64,000 nucleotides of DNA from Dehalococcoidia bacterium. GTDB lineage: Bacteria; Chloroflexota; Dehalococcoidia; UBA6926. The DNA is taken from contig CBDEUZ010000007.1 in the NCBI GenBank assembly GCA_965243495.1, positions 154,450 to 218,449 of the forward strand, given 5' to 3'. Under the pieces are notes generated by a model that saw only the letters and a list, made by a program, of their open reading frames with translations, was not told where the DNA came from and did not search any database. Below are positions 21,200-46,342 of the stretch, one piece after another. A program made the position numbers and the translations under genes. Position 1 is the stretch's first letter. Each line of letters begins with the position of its first letter.

Positions 21200-23077
21200 A
21201 TGTTAAAAACAATCCTGCTGCGCGTGACCCTCATGGCGCTTGCCGTCGTGTTCATGCTCATCGGCGTCGTCACCGCCCTTTTCCCGCGACCCGTCATCGA
21301 ACTCCTGGATCTCGGGCAGGTAAATGTCATCCTCCTCGGGATGTGGGGCGCTATGCTCGTTCTGCTCGGCGTCGGCGCATTCCTTGCAAACCGTGACCCC
21401 ATACGACACATCCTTTGGCTGCGGCTCACAATTGGATTCCTCTTTGGCATCGCGCTCTACGCCGGACTCGTGTACTGGGGCGGCGGCATCTCCCGGGACA
21501 CGGCAATCGTCCTAGCCGTCATCGGCATCGTCCCCGGCGTCGGGTTGCTTATCCTCTTCCCGCGCTCCCCGCGTTTCGTTTCCACCCGTGTTCGCTCCCC
21601 CGACGGTGTGCTCTTCACGGACGCGGACGACGGCGGCCTCTTCGTGCGCCGGAGCGGCGGCAGGTTCAACCCCTATGTCATCCGCCTCCCTCGCGAGCCC
21701 GCCATGCCGGACACGCATCACCGCCTCCACCCGACTACGGTCACAAACCCCTCCCGCGTCATGGTCGTCGGCGGCGGCGCGCGAGAACACGCCATCGCCG
21801 TCAAACTCCGGCAGAGCGCCGGACTCGAAGAACTCTACATGGCCCCAGGCAACGGCGGCACGGCATCGATCGCCGAGAATCTCCCCATATCAGCCACCGA
21901 CACCGAAGCCATCGTGCAGGCGGCACAGGAACGAAACGTCGAGCTTGTCATCATCGGCCCCGAAGCTCCGCTGGCCCTCGGCCTCGGCGACGCCGTCCGT
22001 GAGGCCGGTATCCTCTGCCTCGGCCCCTCACAAGAGGCGGCGCGCATTGAGTGGAGCAAGTCTTTCGCCAAGCAGGTCATGGACGACGCCGGAGTTCCCA
22101 CCGCCGCATGGACGAAATTTGACAACTACTCACAGGCCACGGAGTACGTCCGCGCGCACCCCGCTCCCCACGTCATCAAGGCGGACGGCCTCACAGCCGG
22201 AAAGGGCGTTGCCGTCTGCGAAACGGAACAGGATGCCGTCACATTCCTGCACCACGTCATGCGACTCCGCGACTTCGGCGAGTCAGGAGATTCCGTGGTG
22301 ATCGAGGAGACACTGTCGGGCGTCGAACTCTCCGTCTTTGCGTTCTGCGACGGCGAGCAGATGCTGCTCGTTCCCCCCGCCTGCGACTACAAGCGCATCT
22401 ACGACGACGATGAAGGTCCCAACACCGGCGGCATGGGATCATATAGCCCGCCGGAGTTCGTCACGGACAAACTCATGGCGGACATCCGTGACACCATCAT
22501 CCGCCCCGTCCTGCGCCGCATGGTTGAACTCGGCACGCCTTACAGCGGCATCCTTTACGCCGGACTCATGCTCACAGACGATGGCCCCAAGGTCATTGAA
22601 TTCAACTCCCGCATGGGCGACCCCGAGGCTCAGGTCGTCCTGCCCCGTATCACGTCCGATTTCCTGCAGCTCGCCGCCGCAACGGCCGCAGGCAAACTTG
22701 AAGACGTGCATCTTGAGTGGACGCCCCAGCCCGCCGTCGGCATCGCCATCGCTTCCGAGGGCTACCCCGGCGACTACCCAACCGGCCTGGAAATCACCGG
22801 ACTCAACACCCTTGACTACGATGCAATTGCCTTCCATGCCGGCACCCGCCTCGAACCCGCCCCTTCCGCTCACCCTGAGCCTGTCGAAGGGCCCAAACTC
22901 GTAACCGCCGGAGGCCGTGTCCTCACCATCACCGCGCTCGGCGACACGATGGAGCAGGCACGCGAGAAAGCCTACGCGAACGCCGCCCGCGTCCAGTTCC
23001 AGGGCGCGCACTACCGCAAAGACATCGCCCTCCGCGCCGTACCCGCTAAGCCCACCGAAGAACACCCTTCACCCTGA
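21200..23077 (+). CDS. purD: Phosphoribosylamine--glycine ligase with in-frame N-terminal 4-TM membrane extension
   Basis: Residues from MVVGGGAREHAIAV (ATG 21761) to the end are a complete PurD (438 aa). Upstream, the same frame is open back to ATG 21200 and encodes about 120 aa of clear TM helices with coding-like GC3. There is no stop between the two parts. A family B repeat fragment is embedded at 22855-22895 (..AHPEPVEG..). Confidence 0.8.
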   Translation: MLKTILLRVTLMALAVVFMLIGVVTALFPRPVIELLDLGQVNVILLGMWGAMLVLLGVGAFLANRDPIRHILWLRLTIGFLFGIALYAGLVYWGGGISRDTAIVLAVIGIVPGVGLLILFPRSPRFVSTRVRSPDGVLFTDADDGGLFVRRSGGRFNPYVIRLPREPAMPDTHHRLHPTTVTNPSRVMVVGGGAREHAIAVKLRQSAGLEELYMAPGNGGTASIAENLPISATDTEAIVQAAQERNVELVIIGPEAPLALGLGDAVREAGILCLGPSQEAARIEWSKSFAKQVMDDAGVPTAAWTKFDNYSQATEYVRAHPAPHVIKADGLTAGKGVAVCETEQDAVTFLHHVMRLRDFGESGDSVVIEETLSGVELSVFAFCDGEQMLLVPPACDYKRIYDDDEGPNTGGMGSYSPPEFVTDKLMADIRDTIIRPVLRRMVELGTPYSGILYAGLMLTDDGPKVIEFNSRMGDPEAQVVLPRITSDFLQLAAATAAGKLEDVHLEWTPQPAVGIAIASEGYPGDYPTGLEITGLNTLDYDAIAFHAGTRLEPAPSAHPEPVEGPKLVTAGGRVLTITALGDTMEQAREKAYANAARVQFQGAHYRKDIALRAVPAKPTEEHPSP

Positions 23078-23079
23078 AC

Positions 23080-23345
23080 CCATTTGAAAAGTCCCCGTTC
23101 GCCCTGAGCGTAGTCGAAGGGGGCTCTCGAACGGGGAGCCGCTCCCACTCTTACTTCGTCATTCCCGCGAAAGCGGGAATCCAGTACGGCGCGCAGCGCC
23201 GTCTAACTTGTCATTCCGAGCGTAGCCGAGGAATCTAAAGCCTCAATTGACCGCCAAAGCCGGAACGCGGCGGACAAACGCCACAAACCAACCTCACCTG
23301 AACGCGAACTTTGGCCGTAGGCACTGCCTACCCCACCCCCACTAA
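23080..23345. repeat. Mosaic repeat array (B, A, C, E)
   Basis: B at 23095-23140, A at 23155-23205, C at 23208-23250, E (..cgcgaactttggccgtaggcactgcctaccc) at 23255-23335. Confidence 0.85.
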
Positions 23346-32099: not shown

Positions 32100-33371
32100 A
32101 TGAAAAAGACGGTCAGCGATATCGACGTGTCCGGCGCGCGATGCCTCGTGCGCGTCGATTTCAACGTTCCGTTCGAACCCGGCACAACCACAATCTCCGA
32201 CGACTCCCGCATCCGCGCCGCCCTACCAACCATCAACTACCTTCGTGAGCGGGGCGCGCGCGTCATCCTCGCAACCCATGTGGGCAGACCAAAGGGCATC
32301 GACGACGGCTTGCGCGTAGCGCCCATGGCCGCACGGCTCTCCGAACTCCTCTCATCGCCCGTCACTGTCGCGCCCGACTCCATCGGCGAGGAAACCGAAA
32401 AGCTCGCCGCCGCGCTCGGCCCCGGTGATGTCCTCTTCCTTGAAAACACGAGGTTCCACCCCGAAGAGGAGAAGAACGCTCCTGATCACTCAGCCGCCCT
32501 CGCCCGTCTTGCGGACTTCTATGTGAACGATGCCTTTGGGTCCGCCCACCGCGCCCACGCCTCCACGGAGGGCGTCGCCCATCTCCTGCCCGCCGTCGCG
32601 GGGTTCCTCCTTGATAAGGAGATCCGCATGTTGGGCGGCATCCTTGAATCGCCCCGCCGTCCGCTGGCAACGCTCATGGGCGGCGCAAAGGTCGGCGACA
32701 AGATGGCCGTCATGGAGCGACTCATCGAGAGCTCGGACATGCTCATCGTCGGCGGTGGCATGGCCGCCGCGTTCCTGGAAGCCCGTGGAATGCGAACCGG
32801 TAAGAGCCTGCTCGAAGCGGACGGCCCGCAGATGGCAGGGCGAATCGAAAGCGCCGCAAGGGCCCGAGGCATCCAACTGCTGATTCCGACGGACGTGATC
32901 GTGGCAACCGAACTCTCCGCCGATGCCCCCGTGTCCGCCGTAAGCAGCGACGCCATCCCTGCAGATGGAATGCTCCTGGACATCGGCCCCGAGACGCGCG
33001 ATACCTACACGCGCGCCTTGCGACTCTGCCAGACAGTACTTTGGAACGGCCCGATGGGTGTATTCGAGTACGACCAATTCGCCGGAGGCACACGCGCTAT
33101 CGCCGAATGCCTCGCCCAACACGCCGGCGCTCCCACCTCCCTTCGTCATTCCCGCGAAAGCGGGAATCCAGTGCGGCGCGCAGCGCCGCCACCTTCTCAC
33201 GCCCCACACGGCGCAACCGTCGTCGTTGGCGGCGGCTCGACGGCTGAGGCCGTCGACGCCCTCGGATATGCCGACGCCATGACCCATGTGTCCACCGGCG
33301 GCGGCGCGGCCCTCGAATTCCTTGAAGGCCGTGTCCTCCCCGGCATCGCCGCCCTCCAGGACATGGACTGA
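32100..33371 (+). CDS. pgk: phosphoglycerate kinase carrying an in-frame repeat-element insertion
   Basis: Full-length PGK (..VRVDFNVP.., ..VWNGPMGVFE.., ..GGGSTAEAV..STGGGAALEFLEG..). Between ..ECLAQHAGA and TVVVGGG, 27 extra residues (PTSLRHSRESGNPVRRAAPPPSHAPHG) are encoded by an exact copy of repeat module A at 33143-33189. Confidence 0.9.
   Translation: MKKTVSDIDVSGARCLVRVDFNVPFEPGTTTISDDSRIRAALPTINYLRERGARVILATHVGRPKGIDDGLRVAPMAARLSELLSSPVTVAPDSIGEETEKLAAALGPGDVLFLENTRFHPEEEKNAPDHSAALARLADFYVNDAFGSAHRAHASTEGVAHLLPAVAGFLLDKEIRMLGGILESPRRPLATLMGGAKVGDKMAVMERLIESSDMLIVGGGMAAAFLEARGMRTGKSLLEADGPQMAGRIESAARARGIQLLIPTDVIVATELSADAPVSAVSSDAIPADGMLLDIGPETRDTYTRALRLCQTVLWNGPMGVFEYDQFAGGTRAIAECLAQHAGAPTSLRHSRESGNPVRRAAPPPSHAPHGATVVVGGGSTAEAVDALGYADAMTHVSTGGGAALEFLEGRVLPGIAALQDMD
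33143..33189 (+). repeat. Module A copy inside the pgk coding frame
   Basis: cgtcattcccgcgaaagcgggaatccagtgcggcgcgcagcgccgcc is identical to the intergenic copy at 32035-32080. Total inserted length keeps the frame open. Confidence 0.9.
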
Positions 33372-34140
33372 ACTTTTCTCTGCCATTCCAAGCGCAACTA
33401 AAGGGTCCCCGTTCGGGAGCCCCCTCGTCATTCCCGCGAAAGCGGGAATCCAGTGCGGCGCGTAGCGCCGCCATTAATCCCCTCTCCCTGAGGGGGAGGG
33501 TTAGGGTGGGGGTGACTCCCCCGTCATTCCGAGCGCAGCCGAGGAATCCAAAGACTCCACAGACCGCCAAAACCGGAACGCGGCACACCAAACCCAACGA
33601 CGACCCTCCCCGGCATCGCCGCCCTCCAGGACGCGGACTAGTCCCCGTTCGCCCTGAGCCTGTCGAAGGGGGCTCCCGAACGGGGAACCAACATCCCCTC
33701 CCCCTCGTCATTCCCGCGAAAGCGGGAATCCAGTGCGGCGCGCTGCGCCGCCATTAATCCCCTCTCCCTCAGGGAGAGGGTTAGGGTGAGGGGGGCTGTA
33801 ATTCCGAGCGCCCTTACTGTCATTCCGAGCGCAGTCGAGGAATCCAAAGCCTCAATAGACCGCCAGAGCAGGAACGCGCATCCGAACCCAACGGCCGCCC
33901 GCACCGGAACGTGAACTTTGGCCGTAGCGCAGCTACCGAGAGCCGTAACGCAGTTACCCCGTTCGCCCTGAGCTTGTCGAAGGGGGCTCCCGAACGGGGA
34001 CCTAGCTCCCCTTCGTCATTCCGGCGCAGGCCGGAATCCACCCCGTGGCCCGTAGGGCCACAACACTCTCCTGCAAACCTTTGTGCTATTCTCAAATTCG
34101 GTGTACAGCGGCATCAAGAGTACAAAGGAATAATTTGAGG
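33372..34140. repeat. Mosaic repeat array (A, D, C, E, B, A, D, C, E, F, B, A-variant)
   Basis: Two successive composite blocks A-D-C-E at about 33420-33600 and 33705-33900, then F+B at 33911-34005 and an A-variant (cgtcattccggcgcaggccggaatcc) at 34015-34045. The D copies contain (G3N3)3G3 tracts. Confidence 0.85.
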
Positions 34141-35196
34141 ATGGAAACCTTTGACGAAGTAATACGGGCAGCGCTGGAGGCAGCCCGGCAGCGTGAAGGC
34201 TATATCGGCCCGCTTGAGGACTTTACGATTGCCCTTGCTAGCAGAGACTGGCAGGAGAGAGACCCCGTTATTGAAGGAATACTCACCGACATCAGGGCTG
34301 GCTCACAAGAACCTCTGACACTATGGCATGCACAGCATCATGGTGTTGAGGACACGATTCTCCAGAAGTGGAACGAACCCCTGCGACTTCTTGATCTCCT
34401 GATTGTCCTTGCTGGGCAATTCGGCACAGATTTCTACAGGGAACGCATAGCAACAGTGGAAGACGGTGGTGAGCGTTTACTGCTCACGGTGCTCACTGAG
34501 CTACACGCCAGAGCTTGCCAAATATCCTCCGCTATACATCTGCTGCTGCGTTCAGGATATGCGGATGACGCTCACGCGCGATGGCGCACACTGCACGAGA
34601 TTTCAGTAATAGCCAATTTTGTGAAGGACGGCGGGGCATCACTTGCTGAAAGATACCAAGAGCATGGAACCATACAGCGGTGCAAGGAATTACGTGCATT
34701 CCGTGAACGTAGTCAGTTATTCGGGAACGAGCCGGAATGGACTGTTGCTGACCATTGGTTCGAGGAACGCTATGAATTGCTTATACAAAAGTATGGCTCG
34801 TCCTTCAAGGAGGACTACGGCTGGGCTGCGGATGCACTCGGCAAGAAGAAGCCAACTTTCAGAGACATTGAGAATAACGTGAAGATAGCCGATACAGTGC
34901 CTATGGCGCTGATGCGCGCGCAATACAGGATGGCAAGCGCAAATGTTCATGCATCCGCACACGGCACTCAATTTCGGTTAGGACTGGGTAAGCATAGTAG
35001 CACTGGAATCCTGTTTGGCCCTAGTATTCAAGGTCTAGGTGACCCAGGGTTTGCGACTGCAAATGCTCTTTGTGAAACGGCACTTACGCTTCTTCAGACA
35101 AGATCGAATGAAGACGATGTCGTGCGCATCTCGATACTGACGAATCTCACCGAGACAACTTCGAACGTATTCCTCACAACGCCGGACGATGATTAG
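34141..35196 (+). CDS. Hypothetical protein (351 aa), lower-GC, first gene of the two-gene island
   Basis: RBS GAGG before ATG 34141. No recognisable catalytic family from sequence. It contains an R-x4-H stretch (RWRTLHE), weakly reminiscent of HEPN-type motifs. GC is about 52% against about 65% in flanking DNA. Confidence 0.55.
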   Translation: METFDEVIRAALEAARQREGYIGPLEDFTIALASRDWQERDPVIEGILTDIRAGSQEPLTLWHAQHHGVEDTILQKWNEPLRLLDLLIVLAGQFGTDFYRERIATVEDGGERLLLTVLTELHARACQISSAIHLLLRSGYADDAHARWRTLHEISVIANFVKDGGASLAERYQEHGTIQRCKELRAFRERSQLFGNEPEWTVADHWFEERYELLIQKYGSSFKEDYGWAADALGKKKPTFRDIENNVKIADTVPMALMRAQYRMASANVHASAHGTQFRLGLGKHSSTGILFGPSIQGLGDPGFATANALCETALTLLQTRSNEDDVVRISILTNLTETTSNVFLTTPDDD

Positions 35197-35240
35197 GCTG
35201 GTAACCGTCCTGAACTTGTCCATGAAAGAGGCAGCACCCT

Positions 35241-36884
35241 ATGACGACCGACTGGAAAAACAAACTCTACTTCGGCGATAACCTCCCCATCATGCGGGAG
35301 CACATCCCGGACGAGTCCGTCGATCTCATCTACCTCGATCCGCCCTTCAACTCCAACGCCACCTACAACGTCCTCTTCCGCGAGCACGATTCCTCGGAGT
35401 CCGCCGCCCAGATTCAGGCATTCGACGATACCTGGCACTGGAGCACGGACGCCGAATGGCATTACCAGCAGGTCGTCACCACCGGCCCGCGAAAACTCGC
35501 GGACATGCTTGGGGCCATGCGCACATTCCTCGGCCAGAACGACATGATGGCCTACCTCACCATGATGGCCCCGCGCATGGTGGAACTGCACCGCGTCCTC
35601 AAGCCCACCGGCAGCATCTACCTCCATTGCGACCCCACCGCCAGCCACTACCTCAAGCTCCTCATGGACGCCGTGTTCGGGCCGACAAGGTTCAGGAACG
35701 AAATCACGTGGAAACGCTCTCATCCCAAGGGATTAGCATTCACTCGCTTCGCATCAAACCATGACGTGATTTTGGTGTACGGCTCCACCAGCGATGCCAC
35801 CTGGAATGCAATGTATACGGAGAACCCTCGCGCCCACGAGCAATACAACCTCATTGAAGAAGGCACAGGACGTAGATACCAGTTGACCAGTCTATTGAAT
35901 CCAAATCCAGATCGCCCAAACCTGACATACGAATTCAAGGGCGTAACGAGAGTATGGCGATGGACAAAAGAACGCATGGAACAAGCTGATAAAGACGGGC
36001 TAATCGTTGTTCCGCGTGAGGGACAAGGGGTTCCGAGACTGAAGAGGTATCTTGATAAACAGGAAGGGATTCCAGTAGGCGACACTTGGGATGACATCCC
36101 AATTGCGGCTGGCAAAGAGCGCCTCGGCTATCCCACCCAGAAGCCCGAGGCCCTGCTTGAACGCATCATCTCCGCCTCCAGCAACGAGGGCGATGTCATC
36201 CTCGACCCCTTCTGCGGCTGCGGCACCGCCGTCGCCGTCGCGGAACGCCTGAACCGCAAGTGGATCGGCATCGACGTCACCCATCTCGCCATCTCCCTCA
36301 TGCGCAGCCGCCTGCGTGACTCGTTCGGCGATGACCTGTCCGACTATGAGGTCGTCGGCTCCCCCGCGGACGCGGAGAGCGCCCGCGCACTGTCGCTTGA
36401 GGGCGGCAACACCGGCCGATACCAGTTCGAATACTGGGCGCTCGGCCTGGTTGAGGCCCGCCCTGCCCGCGACATGAAGAGGGGCGCGGACGCCGGTATC
36501 GACGGCTACATCAACTTCTTTGACGACAACTCCGGCAAAGCCAAGTCCGTCATCGTCCAGGTCAAGAGCGGTAACGTGGGCCGCAACGTCATCGCCACCC
36601 TGAAGGGCGACATGGAACGCGAAAACGCCGAAATGTCTCTGCTGATCACCTTGCGTCCGCCCACCAAACCGATGCTTGATGAGGCTGCGTCCGCCGGATT
36701 CTACACGCCGGAGGCCTACCCGGACCGACAATTTCCCCGCGTCCAGATCGCCACCATTGAGGACATCCTCAACGGCAACGGCCCCGCGATACCCCAACTC
36801 GGCCTCTCCCAACCCCCGACCTTCCGCCGCGCCCCCCGCCGCCGCCGAACAGACTCCACATCCCCCCGCATGAACATCGGCTAG
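35241..36884 (+). CDS. Beta-class N6-adenine/N4-cytosine DNA methyltransferase fused to a C-terminal Mrr-like (PD-(D/E)xK) nuclease-type domain
   Basis: Motif IV LIYLDPPFNS near the N-terminus, motif I/X ..GYPTQKPEALLERII..VILDPFCGCGTAV.. after a central target-recognition region (beta-class order). The C-terminal approximately 190 aa carry ..DAGIDGYINFF..SVIVQVKSGNVGRNVIATLKG..LLITL.., matching the Mrr catalytic-domain pattern. The central TRD segment (about 35700-36110) is about 48% GC while both flanks are about 65%. Confidence 0.8.
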   Translation: MTTDWKNKLYFGDNLPIMREHIPDESVDLIYLDPPFNSNATYNVLFREHDSSESAAQIQAFDDTWHWSTDAEWHYQQVVTTGPRKLADMLGAMRTFLGQNDMMAYLTMMAPRMVELHRVLKPTGSIYLHCDPTASHYLKLLMDAVFGPTRFRNEITWKRSHPKGLAFTRFASNHDVILVYGSTSDATWNAMYTENPRAHEQYNLIEEGTGRRYQLTSLLNPNPDRPNLTYEFKGVTRVWRWTKERMEQADKDGLIVVPREGQGVPRLKRYLDKQEGIPVGDTWDDIPIAAGKERLGYPTQKPEALLERIISASSNEGDVILDPFCGCGTAVAVAERLNRKWIGIDVTHLAISLMRSRLRDSFGDDLSDYEVVGSPADAESARALSLEGGNTGRYQFEYWALGLVEARPARDMKRGADAGIDGYINFFDDNSGKAKSVIVQVKSGNVGRNVIATLKGDMERENAEMSLLITLRPPTKPMLDEAASAGFYTPEAYPDRQFPRVQIATIEDILNGNGPAIPQLGLSQPPTFRRAPRRRRTDSTSPRMNIG

Positions 36885-37277
36885 CCCTGCCCACCCTGAG
36901 CCTGTCGAAAGGCCTTCCACTTCCCGTTCGCCCTGAGCCTGTCGAAGGGGGCTCCCGAACGGGTACCTAGCCCCCTCGTCATTCCCGCGAAAGCGGGAAT
37001 CCAGTGCGGCGCGCAGCGCCGCCTCTCATGTCATTCCGAGCACAGCCGAGGAATCTAAAGACTCCACAGACCGCCAAAGCCGGAACGCGACACACCAGCC
37101 TCACGCACAAATCGACGCTGATCGCGAGCTATGGTTGTAGGCACTGCCTACCCGCCCAAAGCCGGAACGCGGCACACCAAACCCACGAACCGTTCTCGCC
37201 GGAACGTGAACTTTGGCCGTAGCGCAGCTACCCGAGAGCCGTAACGCAGTTACCCCCGCTATACTGTCCACACGCAT
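36885..37277. repeat. Mosaic repeat array (B-partial, B, A, C, E, E, F)
   Basis: B fragments at 36895-36965, A at 36975-37020, C at 37025-37065, E at 37065-37200, F (gaactttggccgtagcgcagctacccgagagccgtaacgcagttacccc) at 37198-37255. The F copy is a direct repeat of 33905-33961 on the other side of the island. Confidence 0.85.
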
Positions 37278-43745: not shown

Positions 43746-45044
43746 CTATGGGGATGCCGGTGGCGGCGCAGTGGATTGCCTCGGCCGAGTAACGGTTAGT
43801 GTCAACGGTACCGAAAGACTCAGAATCGCGGCTACAATTACGAACCCGATCACGTAGCTGTCCGTCTGATCGTAGAGCCAGCCGATAGCAACGGGCGACA
43901 AGATGGCCGGTAGCGAGGCCAGACCCTGTTGGATACCGGCTACACGTCCGAATATTGCGAGTCCCCAATATTCGGCTTGGAGCGCCAGCCGTACCGATGA
44001 TTGTGAGCCGATGGCGCTCCCCAGGAGAAATCCAGCGAGTATCGTCAGCCACGGAATGGTAGACAAGGGTATTAGCACAATTGCGATCCCCTGCACGGTA
44101 ATTCCGATTGCAAGCACCACTCGCTTGTCCACATAGTCGGCTATCGTCCCGGCGATGACGCGGATGGGAATGCTGGAAGCTGTTTGCCAAGCGAACATGA
44201 AGGCGATGAATTCTTTGGAGAATCCATTCTTCTGCAGGATGAGCGCCTCATACGTGACGATTGCCCAGGACCCTCCCAACAACGCGCTCGCGATGACGTA
44301 CTGCCAATAACCCCGGCTGCGAAGCACATCCCGCAGTGTGAAGTTGGCTTCCGGCAAAACGTTCGCGCGAGACGACGGCGCGGTTTGGTTCTCGGGAGCT
44401 TCGCCGCCGTCAGGTTCCATCCCATAGTCCTGCGGCCTGTTGCGGATGAGGGGAATCAGGAGCATCCCGACAACCCAGAACCCCACACCCGCGCCAAACA
44501 AGACAGACCGCCATCCAAACTCTGGGATTATCCAGGCCCACACCCCTGCCAGCAGCCCGGACATGCCCGGCCCAACAATCATGATGCCGTTGGCACGTCC
44601 TCGAAATCGCCTAAACCATGCGTTGATCGCCGCAGCCGTGACGATGAACGACCCCGCGCTCAAACCGAACGCAAAGACGATGAAGACACCGTAGTACTGC
44701 CAAATATTGTTGACCTGGCTCATCAGCATGCAGCCGCCACCGGACACGAAGTAGCCGACTATCAGAATCTTGCGAGCGCCATATCGATCGACCAGGTAAC
44801 CGGTCAAGGGAGCTGTGATGCCGGATTCAAGCCGTTGTAACGAGGGGCCAATGCCTGCCAGCGCTTGCGACCATCCAAAGTGCGTCACCATCGCCGCGAA
44901 GAAGTTTGAGAAGCCCCAGAAGCCGATGCCGTCTGTGTAGGCGGCGAGGCCCGTGCCCGACAGCGTCACCCACCAGCCGTAGAAAACCTGCCGCGGATGT
45001 CTGGCGAACATCCACGCCGTCATAACGGTTTTCTGGGTCCTCAT
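43746..45044 (-). CDS. MFS transporter (OFA-like), tandem paralog 1
   Basis: MRTQKTVMTAWMFARHPRQVFYGWWVTLSGTGLAAYTDGIGFWGFSNFFAAMV.. is near-identical at the N-terminus to the next gene upstream. Confidence 0.8.
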   Translation of the reverse strand: MRTQKTVMTAWMFARHPRQVFYGWWVTLSGTGLAAYTDGIGFWGFSNFFAAMVTHFGWSQALAGIGPSLQRLESGITAPLTGYLVDRYGARKILIVGYFVSGGGCMLMSQVNNIWQYYGVFIVFAFGLSAGSFIVTAAAINAWFRRFRGRANGIMIVGPGMSGLLAGVWAWIIPEFGWRSVLFGAGVGFWVVGMLLIPLIRNRPQDYGMEPDGGEAPENQTAPSSRANVLPEANFTLRDVLRSRGYWQYVIASALLGGSWAIVTYEALILQKNGFSKEFIAFMFAWQTASSIPIRVIAGTIADYVDKRVVLAIGITVQGIAIVLIPLSTIPWLTILAGFLLGSAIGSQSSVRLALQAEYWGLAIFGRVAGIQQGLASLPAILSPVAIGWLYDQTDSYVIGFVIVAAILSLSVPLTLTVTRPRQSTAPPPASP

Positions 45045-46342
45045 GTCCTGGCAAGCCTCGTTCCATCAGCGGTGCTGCTCTTCGGGCGTGTCATCGTGAG
45101 CGTCAACGGAACGGAGATGCTCAGAACCGCAGCAACAATCATGAATCCAACAAGGTAGCTGCCCGTCTCGTCGTAGAGCCAGCCGATGGCGAACGGCGCA
45201 ATGATGGACGGTATGGACGCCAGTCCCTGCTGAATGCCAACGACACGCCCAAAGATTGCCAGGCCCCAATACTCAGCTTGTAAAGCAAGCCTCACAGATG
45301 ACTGTGAACCGATCGCGCTGCCCAGCAAGAACCCCGCTATCATCGCGATCCACAGTTCAGTCGCCAGAGGGAACAGCACAATAGCTACACCCTGCACGAT
45401 GATGGCAACGGCAAGGACAACGCGCTTGTCTATGTAGTCGGCGACTGTGCCTGCAACCACACGGATCGGAATACTGGAGGAGGTCTGCCAGATGAAAACG
45501 AGTGCAATTGCCCTGTCCGTTAAGCCATTCTCACTCAGCATCAGAGCCTCGAACGTGATGACCGACCAGGACGCGCCGAGCAGTGAACTAGCGATTACGA
45601 ACTGCCAGTATCCCCGGCTTCGTAGCACATCCCGCAGGGCATAGTTGGCATCAGGCAGTACGCTGCTGCGGGCAGTCGGAGCGGTCTCACTTTCGGGCGC
45701 CGGGCCGCCGTCCGGTTCCATCCCATAGTTCTCCGGCCTGTTGCGAATCAGGGGAATCAAAGCCATACCGACGATCCAGAATCCGATACCGGCGGCAAAC
45801 AGCACCGTGCGCCAACCGAATTCCGGTATCACCAGCGCCCAGAATCCAGACAACACTCCCGACAGTCCCGGTCCCACAAGCATGATGCCGTTCGCGCGTC
45901 CCCGATAACGACGGAACCATGCATTGATCGCCGCCGACGTCACAGTGAAAGCGCCCGCGCTGAGACCGAACGCAAGAATGATGAATGAACCATAGTATTG
46001 CCACAGGTTTTCGATCTGGCTCATCAGGATGCAGCCGCACCCCGCCGCGATGTAGCCGATAACCAGCACCTTTCGAGCTCCGTAGCGATCCACCATCGCG
46101 CCGGTGATTGGCGCGGCAATGCCGGATTCAAGCCGATGCAGGGACGGACCGATAGCCGCGATGGCTTGAGGCCAGCCGAAATGGCGGACTATTGCCGCAA
46201 AGAAATTGGTGAATCCCCAGAAGCCGATGCCGTCCGTGTAGGCGGCGAGACCGGTTCCCGCCAGCGTTACCCACCAGCCGTAGAAGACCTGCCGCGGATG
46301 CCGCGCGAACATCCACGCCGTCATAACGACCATTTCGGTTCT
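45041..46342 (-). CDS. MFS transporter (OFA-like), tandem paralog 2
   Basis: (V)RTEMVVMTAWMFARHPRQVFYGWWVTLAGTGLAAYTDGIGFWGFTNFFAAIV.. GTG start at 46342 or ATG at 46333; the longest ORF extends to 46609. Confidence 0.8.
   Translation of the reverse strand, partial: RTEMVVMTAWMFARHPRQVFYGWWVTLAGTGLAAYTDGIGFWGFTNFFAAIVRHFGWPQAIAAIGPSLHRLESGIAAPITGAMVDRYGARKVLVIGYIAAGCGCILMSQIENLWQYYGSFIILAFGLSAGAFTVTSAAINAWFRRYRGRANGIMLVGPGLSGVLSGFWALVIPEFGWRTVLFAAGIGFWIVGMALIPLIRNRPENYGMEPDGGPAPESETAPTARSSVLPDANYALRDVLRSRGYWQFVIASSLLGASWSVITFEALMLSENGLTDRAIALVFIWQTSSSIPIRVVAGTVADYIDKRVVLAVAIIVQGVAIVLFPLATELWIAMIAGFLLGSAIGSQSSVRLALQAEYWGLAIFGRVVGIQQGLASIPSIIAPFAIGWLYDETGSYLVGFMIVAAVLSISVPLTLTMTRPKSSTADGTRLART

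Follow-up and report, generated by a model that had tools for sequence, protein, structure and literature searches.

In-frame copies of an intergenic hairpin repeat in the PurD loop of Dehalococcoidia

How does a fragment of an intergenic repeat come to be read as part of a housekeeping enzyme? This question is raised by a stretch of 64,000 nucleotides (nt) from a Dehalococcoidia bacterium (Chloroflexota; assembly GCA_965243495.1, contig CBDEUZ010000007.1), which we call the window, and in which the purD gene contains a piece of module B, one of several short repeat modules that form arrays between the genes. A preliminary description of the window had pointed out this piece, and in this paper we compare it with the intergenic copies, with purD of related genomes and with repeat families known from other bacteria. 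We consider it very probable that a module B unit was copied in-frame into a loop of PurD as selfish or neutral repeat DNA and that the core of the copy is recent or recurrent. The in-frame exonisation of intergenic palindromic repeats, best known from Rickettsia, is thereby shown to occur also in Chloroflexota from sponges, in free-standing genes of central metabolism and with much smaller modular units.

The repeat-derived segment of PurD

The purD open reading frame (ORF; 21200..23077, + strand, 625 amino acids (aa)) was taken from a program-made ORF list. Its last 440 aa match the Pfam families GARS_N, GARS_A and GARS_C as well as solved PurD structures (E = 1e-116), so that the catalytic part of this GAR synthetase extends from about position 21755, and all residues invariant across PurD are present in the insert-bearing protein. 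Inside the segment 22850-22900 (ctcgaacccgccccttccgctcaCCCTGAGCCTGTCGAAGGGcccaaactc) the exact 19-nt match to the module B core is confirmed at 22873-22891 on the + strand (CCCTGAGCCTGTCGAAGGG, read as (H)PEPVEG), and the purD frame gives ...LEPAPSAHPEPVEGPKLV..., as had been described. The canonical intergenic module B has the form CCCCGTTCG-CCCTGAGCCTGTCGAAGGG-GGCTCCCGAACGGGG; as single-stranded DNA it forms a hairpin with 9-bp arms (-12 kcal/mol), and in the frame named in the earlier description it translates to PVRPEPVEGGSRTG. The flanks, previously called partly conserved, extend the in-register stretch to 22866..22891 (+ strand, repeat family D7), where purD reads CCGCTCACCCTGAGCCTGTCGAAGGG and agrees with module B at 24 of 26 positions, over the core and some of its 5' hairpin arm (CCGYTCR).

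With up to two mismatches the 19-mer occurs 13 times in the window, eight times exactly and always on the + strand. Twelve of these copies lie between long ORFs and the remaining one in purD, while 100 dinucleotide-preserving shuffles of the window yielded no match at the same threshold, which bears out the judgement that a chance match is negligible. The full form of module B is present in ten copies, namely nine of the 12 intergenic near-exact copies and a variant with a 1-nt indel directly downstream of purD (23093..23137, + strand, found with blastn-short of the module consensi), which opens the purD-purE intergenic array of modules B, A, C and D (23093-23332, +, blastn-short). Two intergenic copies, at 2908-2935 and 36894-36912, end after GAAGG(G), as the purD copy does. 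The second of these (+ strand, 18/19 in the 19-mer search) consists, like the purD copy, of the core without both hairpin arms, and the CCTTCCACTTCCC after it resembles CCACTCTCCC, which relatives have behind the core in their purD inserts. For the purD copy itself, hairpin folding is not significant (z = -1.6 on the + strand and -2.2 on the - strand), and we therefore claim no mRNA structure. An Rfam scan of the window returned three tRNAs only and no known RNA family over the modules, and a literature search for exact strings of DNA and peptide was negative for module B.

Our comparison covers 21 purD loci, the window and 20 orthologues with 77-92% aa identity to it. The closest loci come from metagenome-assembled Dehalococcoidia, some with chromosome-level assemblies, and several appear from their isolate names (SB0661_bin_39, APA_bin_32) to be sponge metagenome bins. 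In 14 of the 21 loci (L002, L003, L004, L006, L007, L008, L011, L012, L013, L015, L016, L017, L072 and L079; 77-91% aa identity to the window) the site is empty and reads RLDPATGKLL (protein ...RLDPATGKLLTAGGRV; DNA CTCGAC CCC GCA ACC GGC AAA CTC). Compared codon by codon with these orthologues, the window has an insert block of 12 codons at 22859..22894 (+ strand; APSAHPEPVEGP) in place of the three codons for A-T-G, a net gain of 27 nt or 9 aa. The site is filled in seven loci, the window and six others, always at the same codon and in the same frame, with 9-34 extra residues. The gain is 9 aa in the window (EPAPSAHPEPVEGPK), L001 (DPVHPEPVEGQPSPK) and L005 (TPVHPEPVEGPPFQK), 12 aa in L078 (APSPSVRPEPVEGQLSQK), 27 aa in both L009 and L014 (...PTSAHPE..VRPEPVEGP.SQ.) and 34 aa in L010, which has the L009/L014 form plus one further subunit. 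Of the filled alleles, two belong to assemblies at chromosome level (OZ244736.1, OY762213.1).

All seven filled alleles carry the 19-mer at 19/19, against 8-10/19 for the best ungapped match at the site in the 14 empty orthologues, which shows that the match is not compositional. Some relatives hold even more of module B than the window does, which supports the repeat-derived origin proposed earlier. The purD of L078 agrees with CCGTTCGCCCTGAGCCTGTCGAAGGG of module B at 26 of 26 positions, and L009, L010 and L014 read CCCCGTTCGCCCTGAGCCTGTCGAAGGG, that is the 5' hairpin arm with the core, including the whole arm CCCCGTTCG. All filled alleles retain CTCCC(G)AA, which recalls the 3' arm in decayed form, and the window allele equals the L078 structure minus 9 nt. 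The longer alleles (L009, L010, L014) further contain 21-nt tandem subunits, CACCCTGAGCCCACMCCCGTY (read HPEPTPV), and the presence of such subunits suggests a slippage-driven expansion intrinsic to the repeat. The same subunits precede a complete core both in the clade B loops (clades are defined below) and in the 3' tail array of L004 (4340-4410).

The site is empty in the outgroups L015 and L016 and in PurD of more distant Chloroflexota, so the empty state is ancestral. The repeat family is found near purD also in genomes whose purD is empty (L003, L006, L008, L011), from which we conclude that the repeat moved into purD. Since the filled alleles do not have the ancestral A-T-G codons, the insertion was combined with the replacement of about 9 nt. 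An alignment of 83 PurD sequences bears on one of the outcomes that would have refuted the first interpretation, the presence of the same peptide in distant taxa: the PEPVEG peptide is absent from the 80 more distant sequences and found only in the window and its closest relatives. A metagenome scan for further purD alleles added one close relative only (L072, empty) and no fresh insertion of a full hairpin. The insertion is not unique to the window genome; it is polymorphic and probably recurrent among related species.

Alignments with the solved PurD/GARS structures 2yrw and 2qk4 show an 11-residue gap exactly at EPAPSAHPEPV, and together with the 9 aa gained over the closest empty orthologues this agrees well with the roughly ten extra residues noticed at first. 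The Pfam GARS_C match likewise takes 100 residues of the window protein over 91 profile positions. We built an AlphaFold2 (AF2) model on the 83-sequence alignment (mean pLDDT 94.9, pTM 0.92), in which strands 364-367 and 381-384 enclose a coil at residues 368-380 (PAPSAHPEPVEGP). Internally, confidence is low only in a block within this region (pLDDT about 67); the C-terminal tail is low as well (65), and the rest of the protein lies above 90. In the predicted structure the insert is a loop extension at the tip of a β-hairpin, where the fold would tolerate insertion.

Distribution of the insert and conservation of its core

Neighbour-joining trees of purD, made with the insert removed (1191 nt), divide the loci into three clades, and trees of guaA, the N-terminal extension of purD, purE and purB recover the same three. 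Filled and empty sites are intermingled in two of them. In clade A the window, L001 and L078 are filled while L002, L004, L017 and L079 are empty; in clade B L005, L009, L010 and L014 are filled while L013 and L072 are empty; every site in clade C is empty. The nearest branch to the window in the purD tree is the empty L002 (99% bootstrap); L004 and L017, both empty, form a group with L001 (87%), and the empty L013 is nested with the filled L009, L010 and L014 (100%). A deletion cannot restore the A-T-G codons, so this patchy pattern needs at least 2-3 independent gains or an exchange of alleles by homologous recombination. We also considered whether the insert was imported together with flanking DNA from another filled lineage, but a sliding nearest-neighbour analysis gave no clear donor signal; the nearest neighbour of the window is the empty L002 over the 150 nt upstream and the empty clade C over the 126 nt downstream, both segments being short.

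The most unusual property of the insert is the conservation of its core. Among the seven filled alleles 354 of the 1191 purD sites vary (29.7%, and 66% of third codon positions), and none of the 1173 possible 19-nt windows in the rest of the gene is invariant, the mean being 5.7 variable sites per window. The inserted 19-mer, in contrast, is identical in 7/7 alleles and lies in a 27-nt block with two variable sites, while the parts of the insert flanking the core vary freely. Selection acting on the peptide would leave synonymous positions unprotected, which means that the core is either young in each lineage, homogenised, or constrained as DNA or RNA. We favour a young core, through recurrent insertion or recent spread, or one homogenised by conversion, over a DNA or RNA constraint. 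The orthologous intergenic copies of L003 and L008 carry private substitutions. A perfectly conserved core within a diverged gene is in any case a concrete and testable anomaly.

The 3' end of the same gene holds further repeat material. The last 12 codons and the stop of the window purD (23039..23077, + strand; VPAKPTEEHPSP and stop) correspond to decayed copies of the module B unit, of which the best reaches 12/19, and the frame is closed by a TGA (23075-23077) that belongs to a degenerate TCACCCTGA unit. In relatives outside clade A purD ends about 7 codons earlier, with ...RAVTQPD and the stop directly abutting the conserved spacer tgccataatctc; clade C relatives and L016 end in ...DIALRAV(TQPD/ASE) and the stop, right before the conserved spacer tgccataatctctataggc, after which purE follows. 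In clade A repeat units have been inserted upstream of the purD-purE spacer and the purD frame runs into them. One of the clade A endings is HPEPVEGSSP; by locus they include ...PAHPETTPSVHPEPVEGSSP in L001, ...HPETTPPVHPEPVEGPPP in L079, HPKPVEGPSP in L078, HPGPGEGPST in L002 and PPKPVEESHSP in L004, each followed by the stop, and their copies match the 19-mer at 12-18 of 19 positions. To judge from the sequences, this is the ordinary decay of an older insertion common to a clade.

A second case of repeat-derived coding sequence in a housekeeping enzyme, to which the preliminary description had alluded, is found in pgk (32100-33371, + strand). The Pfam PGK match is split by an in-frame insertion of about 28 aa (residues 341-374, about 33120-33221, +; Pfam and alignment with 1php), and a module search places a perfect 48-nt module A in-frame inside it (33143-33190, +). 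In the 1php alignment the inserted stretch is the counterpart of about 6 residues at most. Some pgk orthologues have an empty site (397 aa, LAQHARAGATVIVGGG); in the others it is occupied by one of at least four different inserts. In one allele a hairpin of the same type is read in another frame (LIPAKAGIH vs RHSRESGNP), one has a variant hairpin (RHSGEGRNP), and in that of L083 the target is directly duplicated over 27 nt around an insert of 33 nt. Recurrent insertion or remodelling that preserves the frame at a permissive site thus characterises these genomes and is no peculiarity of purD, and the empty and variously filled alleles of sister species in two genes offer a natural series for studying how repeats move and how loops absorb them.

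How the unit may have reached the loop

We propose that a module B unit was copied in-frame into the tip of the β-hairpin in the C-terminal domain of PurD, where it would have replaced three codons and lengthened the loop by a peptide that is rich in Pro and Glu, probably disordered, and tolerated by the enzyme. The insert is best read as selfish or neutral repeat DNA that would have been kept since it landed in-frame and without a stop codon in a permissive loop. The copies in the loop would have arisen or been refreshed recently and more than once. This might have happened by recurrent insertion at a hotspot already reading CCCCG, the first bases of the module B 5' arm, by the spread of an allele through recombination, or by gene conversion from the many intergenic copies, and the process that acts on the purD loop would presumably act on pgk as well. 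Candidate movers of the unit are a site-specific recombinase, a REP-type transposase and template switching.

Some features of the junctions and of the window as a whole bear on the mechanism. The left junction of the purD insert merges with the CCCCG already present in the empty site, which is also the start of the module B 5' arm. Modules of all families share one orientation (about 65 significant matches on the + strand against a few palindromic self-hits on the - strand), and the GC skew is negative across the whole window. The CCCCG junction, the single orientation and the skew fit a single-stranded DNA mechanism of the IS200/IS605 or RAYT type acting at a target motif, but they fit microhomology-primed template switching equally well, and we favour the latter because three codons are replaced and the 3' end is blurred. 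By eye, the empty purD site and the module share CCCCG on the left and have CAAAC vs CGAAC on the right, microhomologies so short that we regard them as a lead only.

Several observations weigh against the proposed history. We found no transposase or recombinase among the nine window ORFs that were scanned against Pfam. The purD insert has no clean target-site duplication, its junctions being blurred, three codons replaced and the 3' arm degenerate. The topology inside clade A is unstable across the flanking genes, which makes the number of independent gains (at least 2-3) uncertain, and the similar right junction of all filled alleles (GAAGGGC-NNNN-CTCCC-AA-AAA) would be compatible with a single origin. 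Moreover, some change in the length of this loop is ordinary: in the 83-sequence alignment the FHAGT..GGRVL loop mostly has 20-22 residues, and it reaches 27 at most in distant homologues, including other Chloroflexota.

A more specific proposal is that an active, sequence-specific process inserts or renews the same short repeat units, time and again and in different species, at the same permissive codons of the essential genes purD and pgk. The agent could be a recombinase or transposase acting on hairpin modules like those of Neisseria intergenic mosaic elements (NIMEs) or repetitive extragenic palindromes (REPs), or conversion templated by the intergenic arrays. We hold this tentatively and think it somewhat doubtful. 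If true, it would account for a 19-nt core without any change in a gene that has diverged by about 15% around it, and the loops of housekeeping proteins would be sites that mobile repeats target again and again, and might give rise to new peptide segments. The opposite view is a single ancient insertion before the split of clades A and B, inherited vertically and lost in places, with a core held by selection on the peptide or on a DNA motif. The common codon and frame, the similar right junction (GGGC.AC.CTCCC.AAAA in all filled alleles) and the single insert structure of the window and L078, which differ by a 9-nt deletion only, would all follow from it. We nevertheless judge it unlikely, as the nested empty alleles keep the ancestral GCAACCGGC (A-T-G), which a simple deletion cannot regenerate. 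Peptide selection is at odds with six third codon positions in the core that are invariant where two thirds of such positions vary elsewhere, and a single conserved insertion with the normal decay of the tail copy in the same gene.

It might also be asked whether the insert is kept for a function, as a 19-nt protein-binding site, an RNA or DNA signal, or a loop interaction of a membrane-anchored PurD. The core is indeed the most conserved 19 nt of purD among filled alleles within an insert whose flanks vary freely, and intergenic copies are nearly identical across species about 15% apart. Most close relatives do without the insert, however; the loop is a low-confidence coil in the AF2 model, the L003 and L008 intergenic copies have their private substitutions and no Rfam family matches, so that we find a function quite improbable. 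An artefact of assembly or binning, with repeat reads mis-joined inside purD, deserves mention given that the window probably stems from a metagenome-assembled genome and that repeats commonly cause misassembly. It is very hard to reconcile with an intact frame, with flanking purD that is continuous and orthologous on both sides, and with seven independent assemblies, of different studies and two at chromosome level, in which the site is filled. A chance or compositional match is suggested by a genome of 60% GC and a Pro-rich loop, where GC-rich sequence codes for Pro and Glu, but the shuffles and the empty orthologues lead us to reject it, and in relatives the match reaches into the 5' arm. 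The reverse direction, with the intergenic family born from a segment of purD, has the shared sequence in its favour and nothing beyond. Outgroups and most relatives combine an empty purD site with the repeat family nearby, and the intergenic copies have hairpin arms which the purD copy of the window does not have, so that we give this origin practically no credence.

Known analogues and neighbouring features

The closest known analogue of the purD insert is the Rickettsia palindromic elements (RPEs; Ogata et al. 2000, 2002), which, in the account given in PMC10969869, are found in-frame and compatible with the fold in many housekeeping genes, are about 100-150 bp long and encode a conserved peptide of their own. 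In both cases a palindromic repeat lies between genes and in-frame in unrelated housekeeping genes, at positions that the fold accepts and that are empty in related orthologues; for purD we find a copy of a dispersed repeat, a preserved frame, orthologues without the insert and, in the AF2 model, a location in a loop. The unit described here is shorter (19-48 nt) and stems from a mosaic of several short hairpin modules, its host is a Chloroflexota sponge associate and not an alphaproteobacterial endosymbiont, and sister species have several alleles at the same codon with an invariant DNA core. Length and host set the purD insert apart from the RPE sequence families, and there is no Rfam match.

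The parent arrays, rather than the purD fragment, resemble NIMEs, in which dRS3 inverted repeats (ATTCCC-N8-GGGAAT) flank RS elements (Bentley et al. 2007, PMC1797815). Module A (GTCATTCCCGCGAAAGCGGGAATCCAG) is present in 15 copies that alternate with modules B-G in the intergenic arrays, and it fits the Neisseria dRS3 consensus; over 27 nt it is identical to sequence that PMC7593972 prints from the region upstream of N. gonorrhoeae pilE. Here too the arrays consist of short intergenic modules, and module B lies between module A hairpins like an RS element; 20-bp ATTCCC-N8-GGGAAT units flanking other units are found in the parent arrays and not in the purD fragment. NIMEs are described as intergenic, specific to Neisseria and not observed outside it (PMC1797815), and in-frame coding copies are absent from that description, whereas they occur here, where the modules also have a uniform orientation. 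We regard the similarity of module A to dRS3, which is one of sequence, as a lead and not as demonstrated homology. Within the window module A ranges over 937-37254 (for example 23156-23181, 33143-33190 and 36976-37023). The modules of all families are confined to 1-37.3 kb, and none occurs in 37.3-64 kb despite intergenic gaps there.

Other known repeats share some of these properties. REPs, together with the bacterial interspersed mosaic elements (BIMEs) and REPINs, are short GC-rich hairpins that are mobilised by RAYT proteins, IS200/IS605-like Y1 transposases, and REPs are extragenic by definition. The modules of the window are likewise short, GC-rich, highly repeated hairpins in mosaic intergenic clusters, and their strict single orientation and the CCCCG at the empty purD target fit single-stranded DNA insertion at a motif without duplication. 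Unlike REPs, they form no REPIN doublets, the copies in the window all having one orientation; the purD insert replaces codons and has no 3' arm, and no RAYT or TnpA is among the nine Pfam-scanned ORFs of the window. MITEs, the miniature inverted-repeat transposable elements, and similar repeats have also been found within genes, as with QMITE1 of Coxiella (PMC5896051) and with the Anabaena MITEs, intragenic ERIC and BOX cited in PMC10969869. The likeness lies in a non-autonomous repeat that is fused in-frame to a host ORF and adds a peptide. MITEs, however, have terminal inverted repeats and target-site duplications and usually exceed 100 bp, while the purD junctions show no terminal inverted repeat and no target-site duplication, and the 27-nt direct duplication in the pgk allele of L083 is unlike the classical duplications of MITEs. 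In practice, gene callers and orthology pipelines will show segments of this kind as lineage-specific loop insertions or C-terminal extensions.

The purD ORF is unusual also at its other end, where an extension of about 170 aa (21200-21703, + strand) precedes the catalytic part. It is kept in P0001-P0016 and stays in-frame in every close relative, as far as 65% identity (proteins of 605-630 aa), while the Pfam scan gave no match for it. By eye, its hydrophobic stretches look like four transmembrane helices. The conservation of this N-terminal sequence suggests a membrane-anchored PurD in the clade of the window.

The intergenic arrays vary between relatives. An ORF for a DUF5677 protein and one for a fused N6/N4 DNA methylase-Mrr-like nuclease (34045-36884, + strand) lie between two large repeat arrays of the window, and in L083 the same methylase is directly upstream of pgk, so that relatives differ in gene order around the arrays. 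Beyond the arrays, at 43781-45821, two adjacent stretches about 1.3 kb apart (families D13 and D14) are 72-73% identical over at least 300 nt, probably as paralogous genes in tandem on the - strand.

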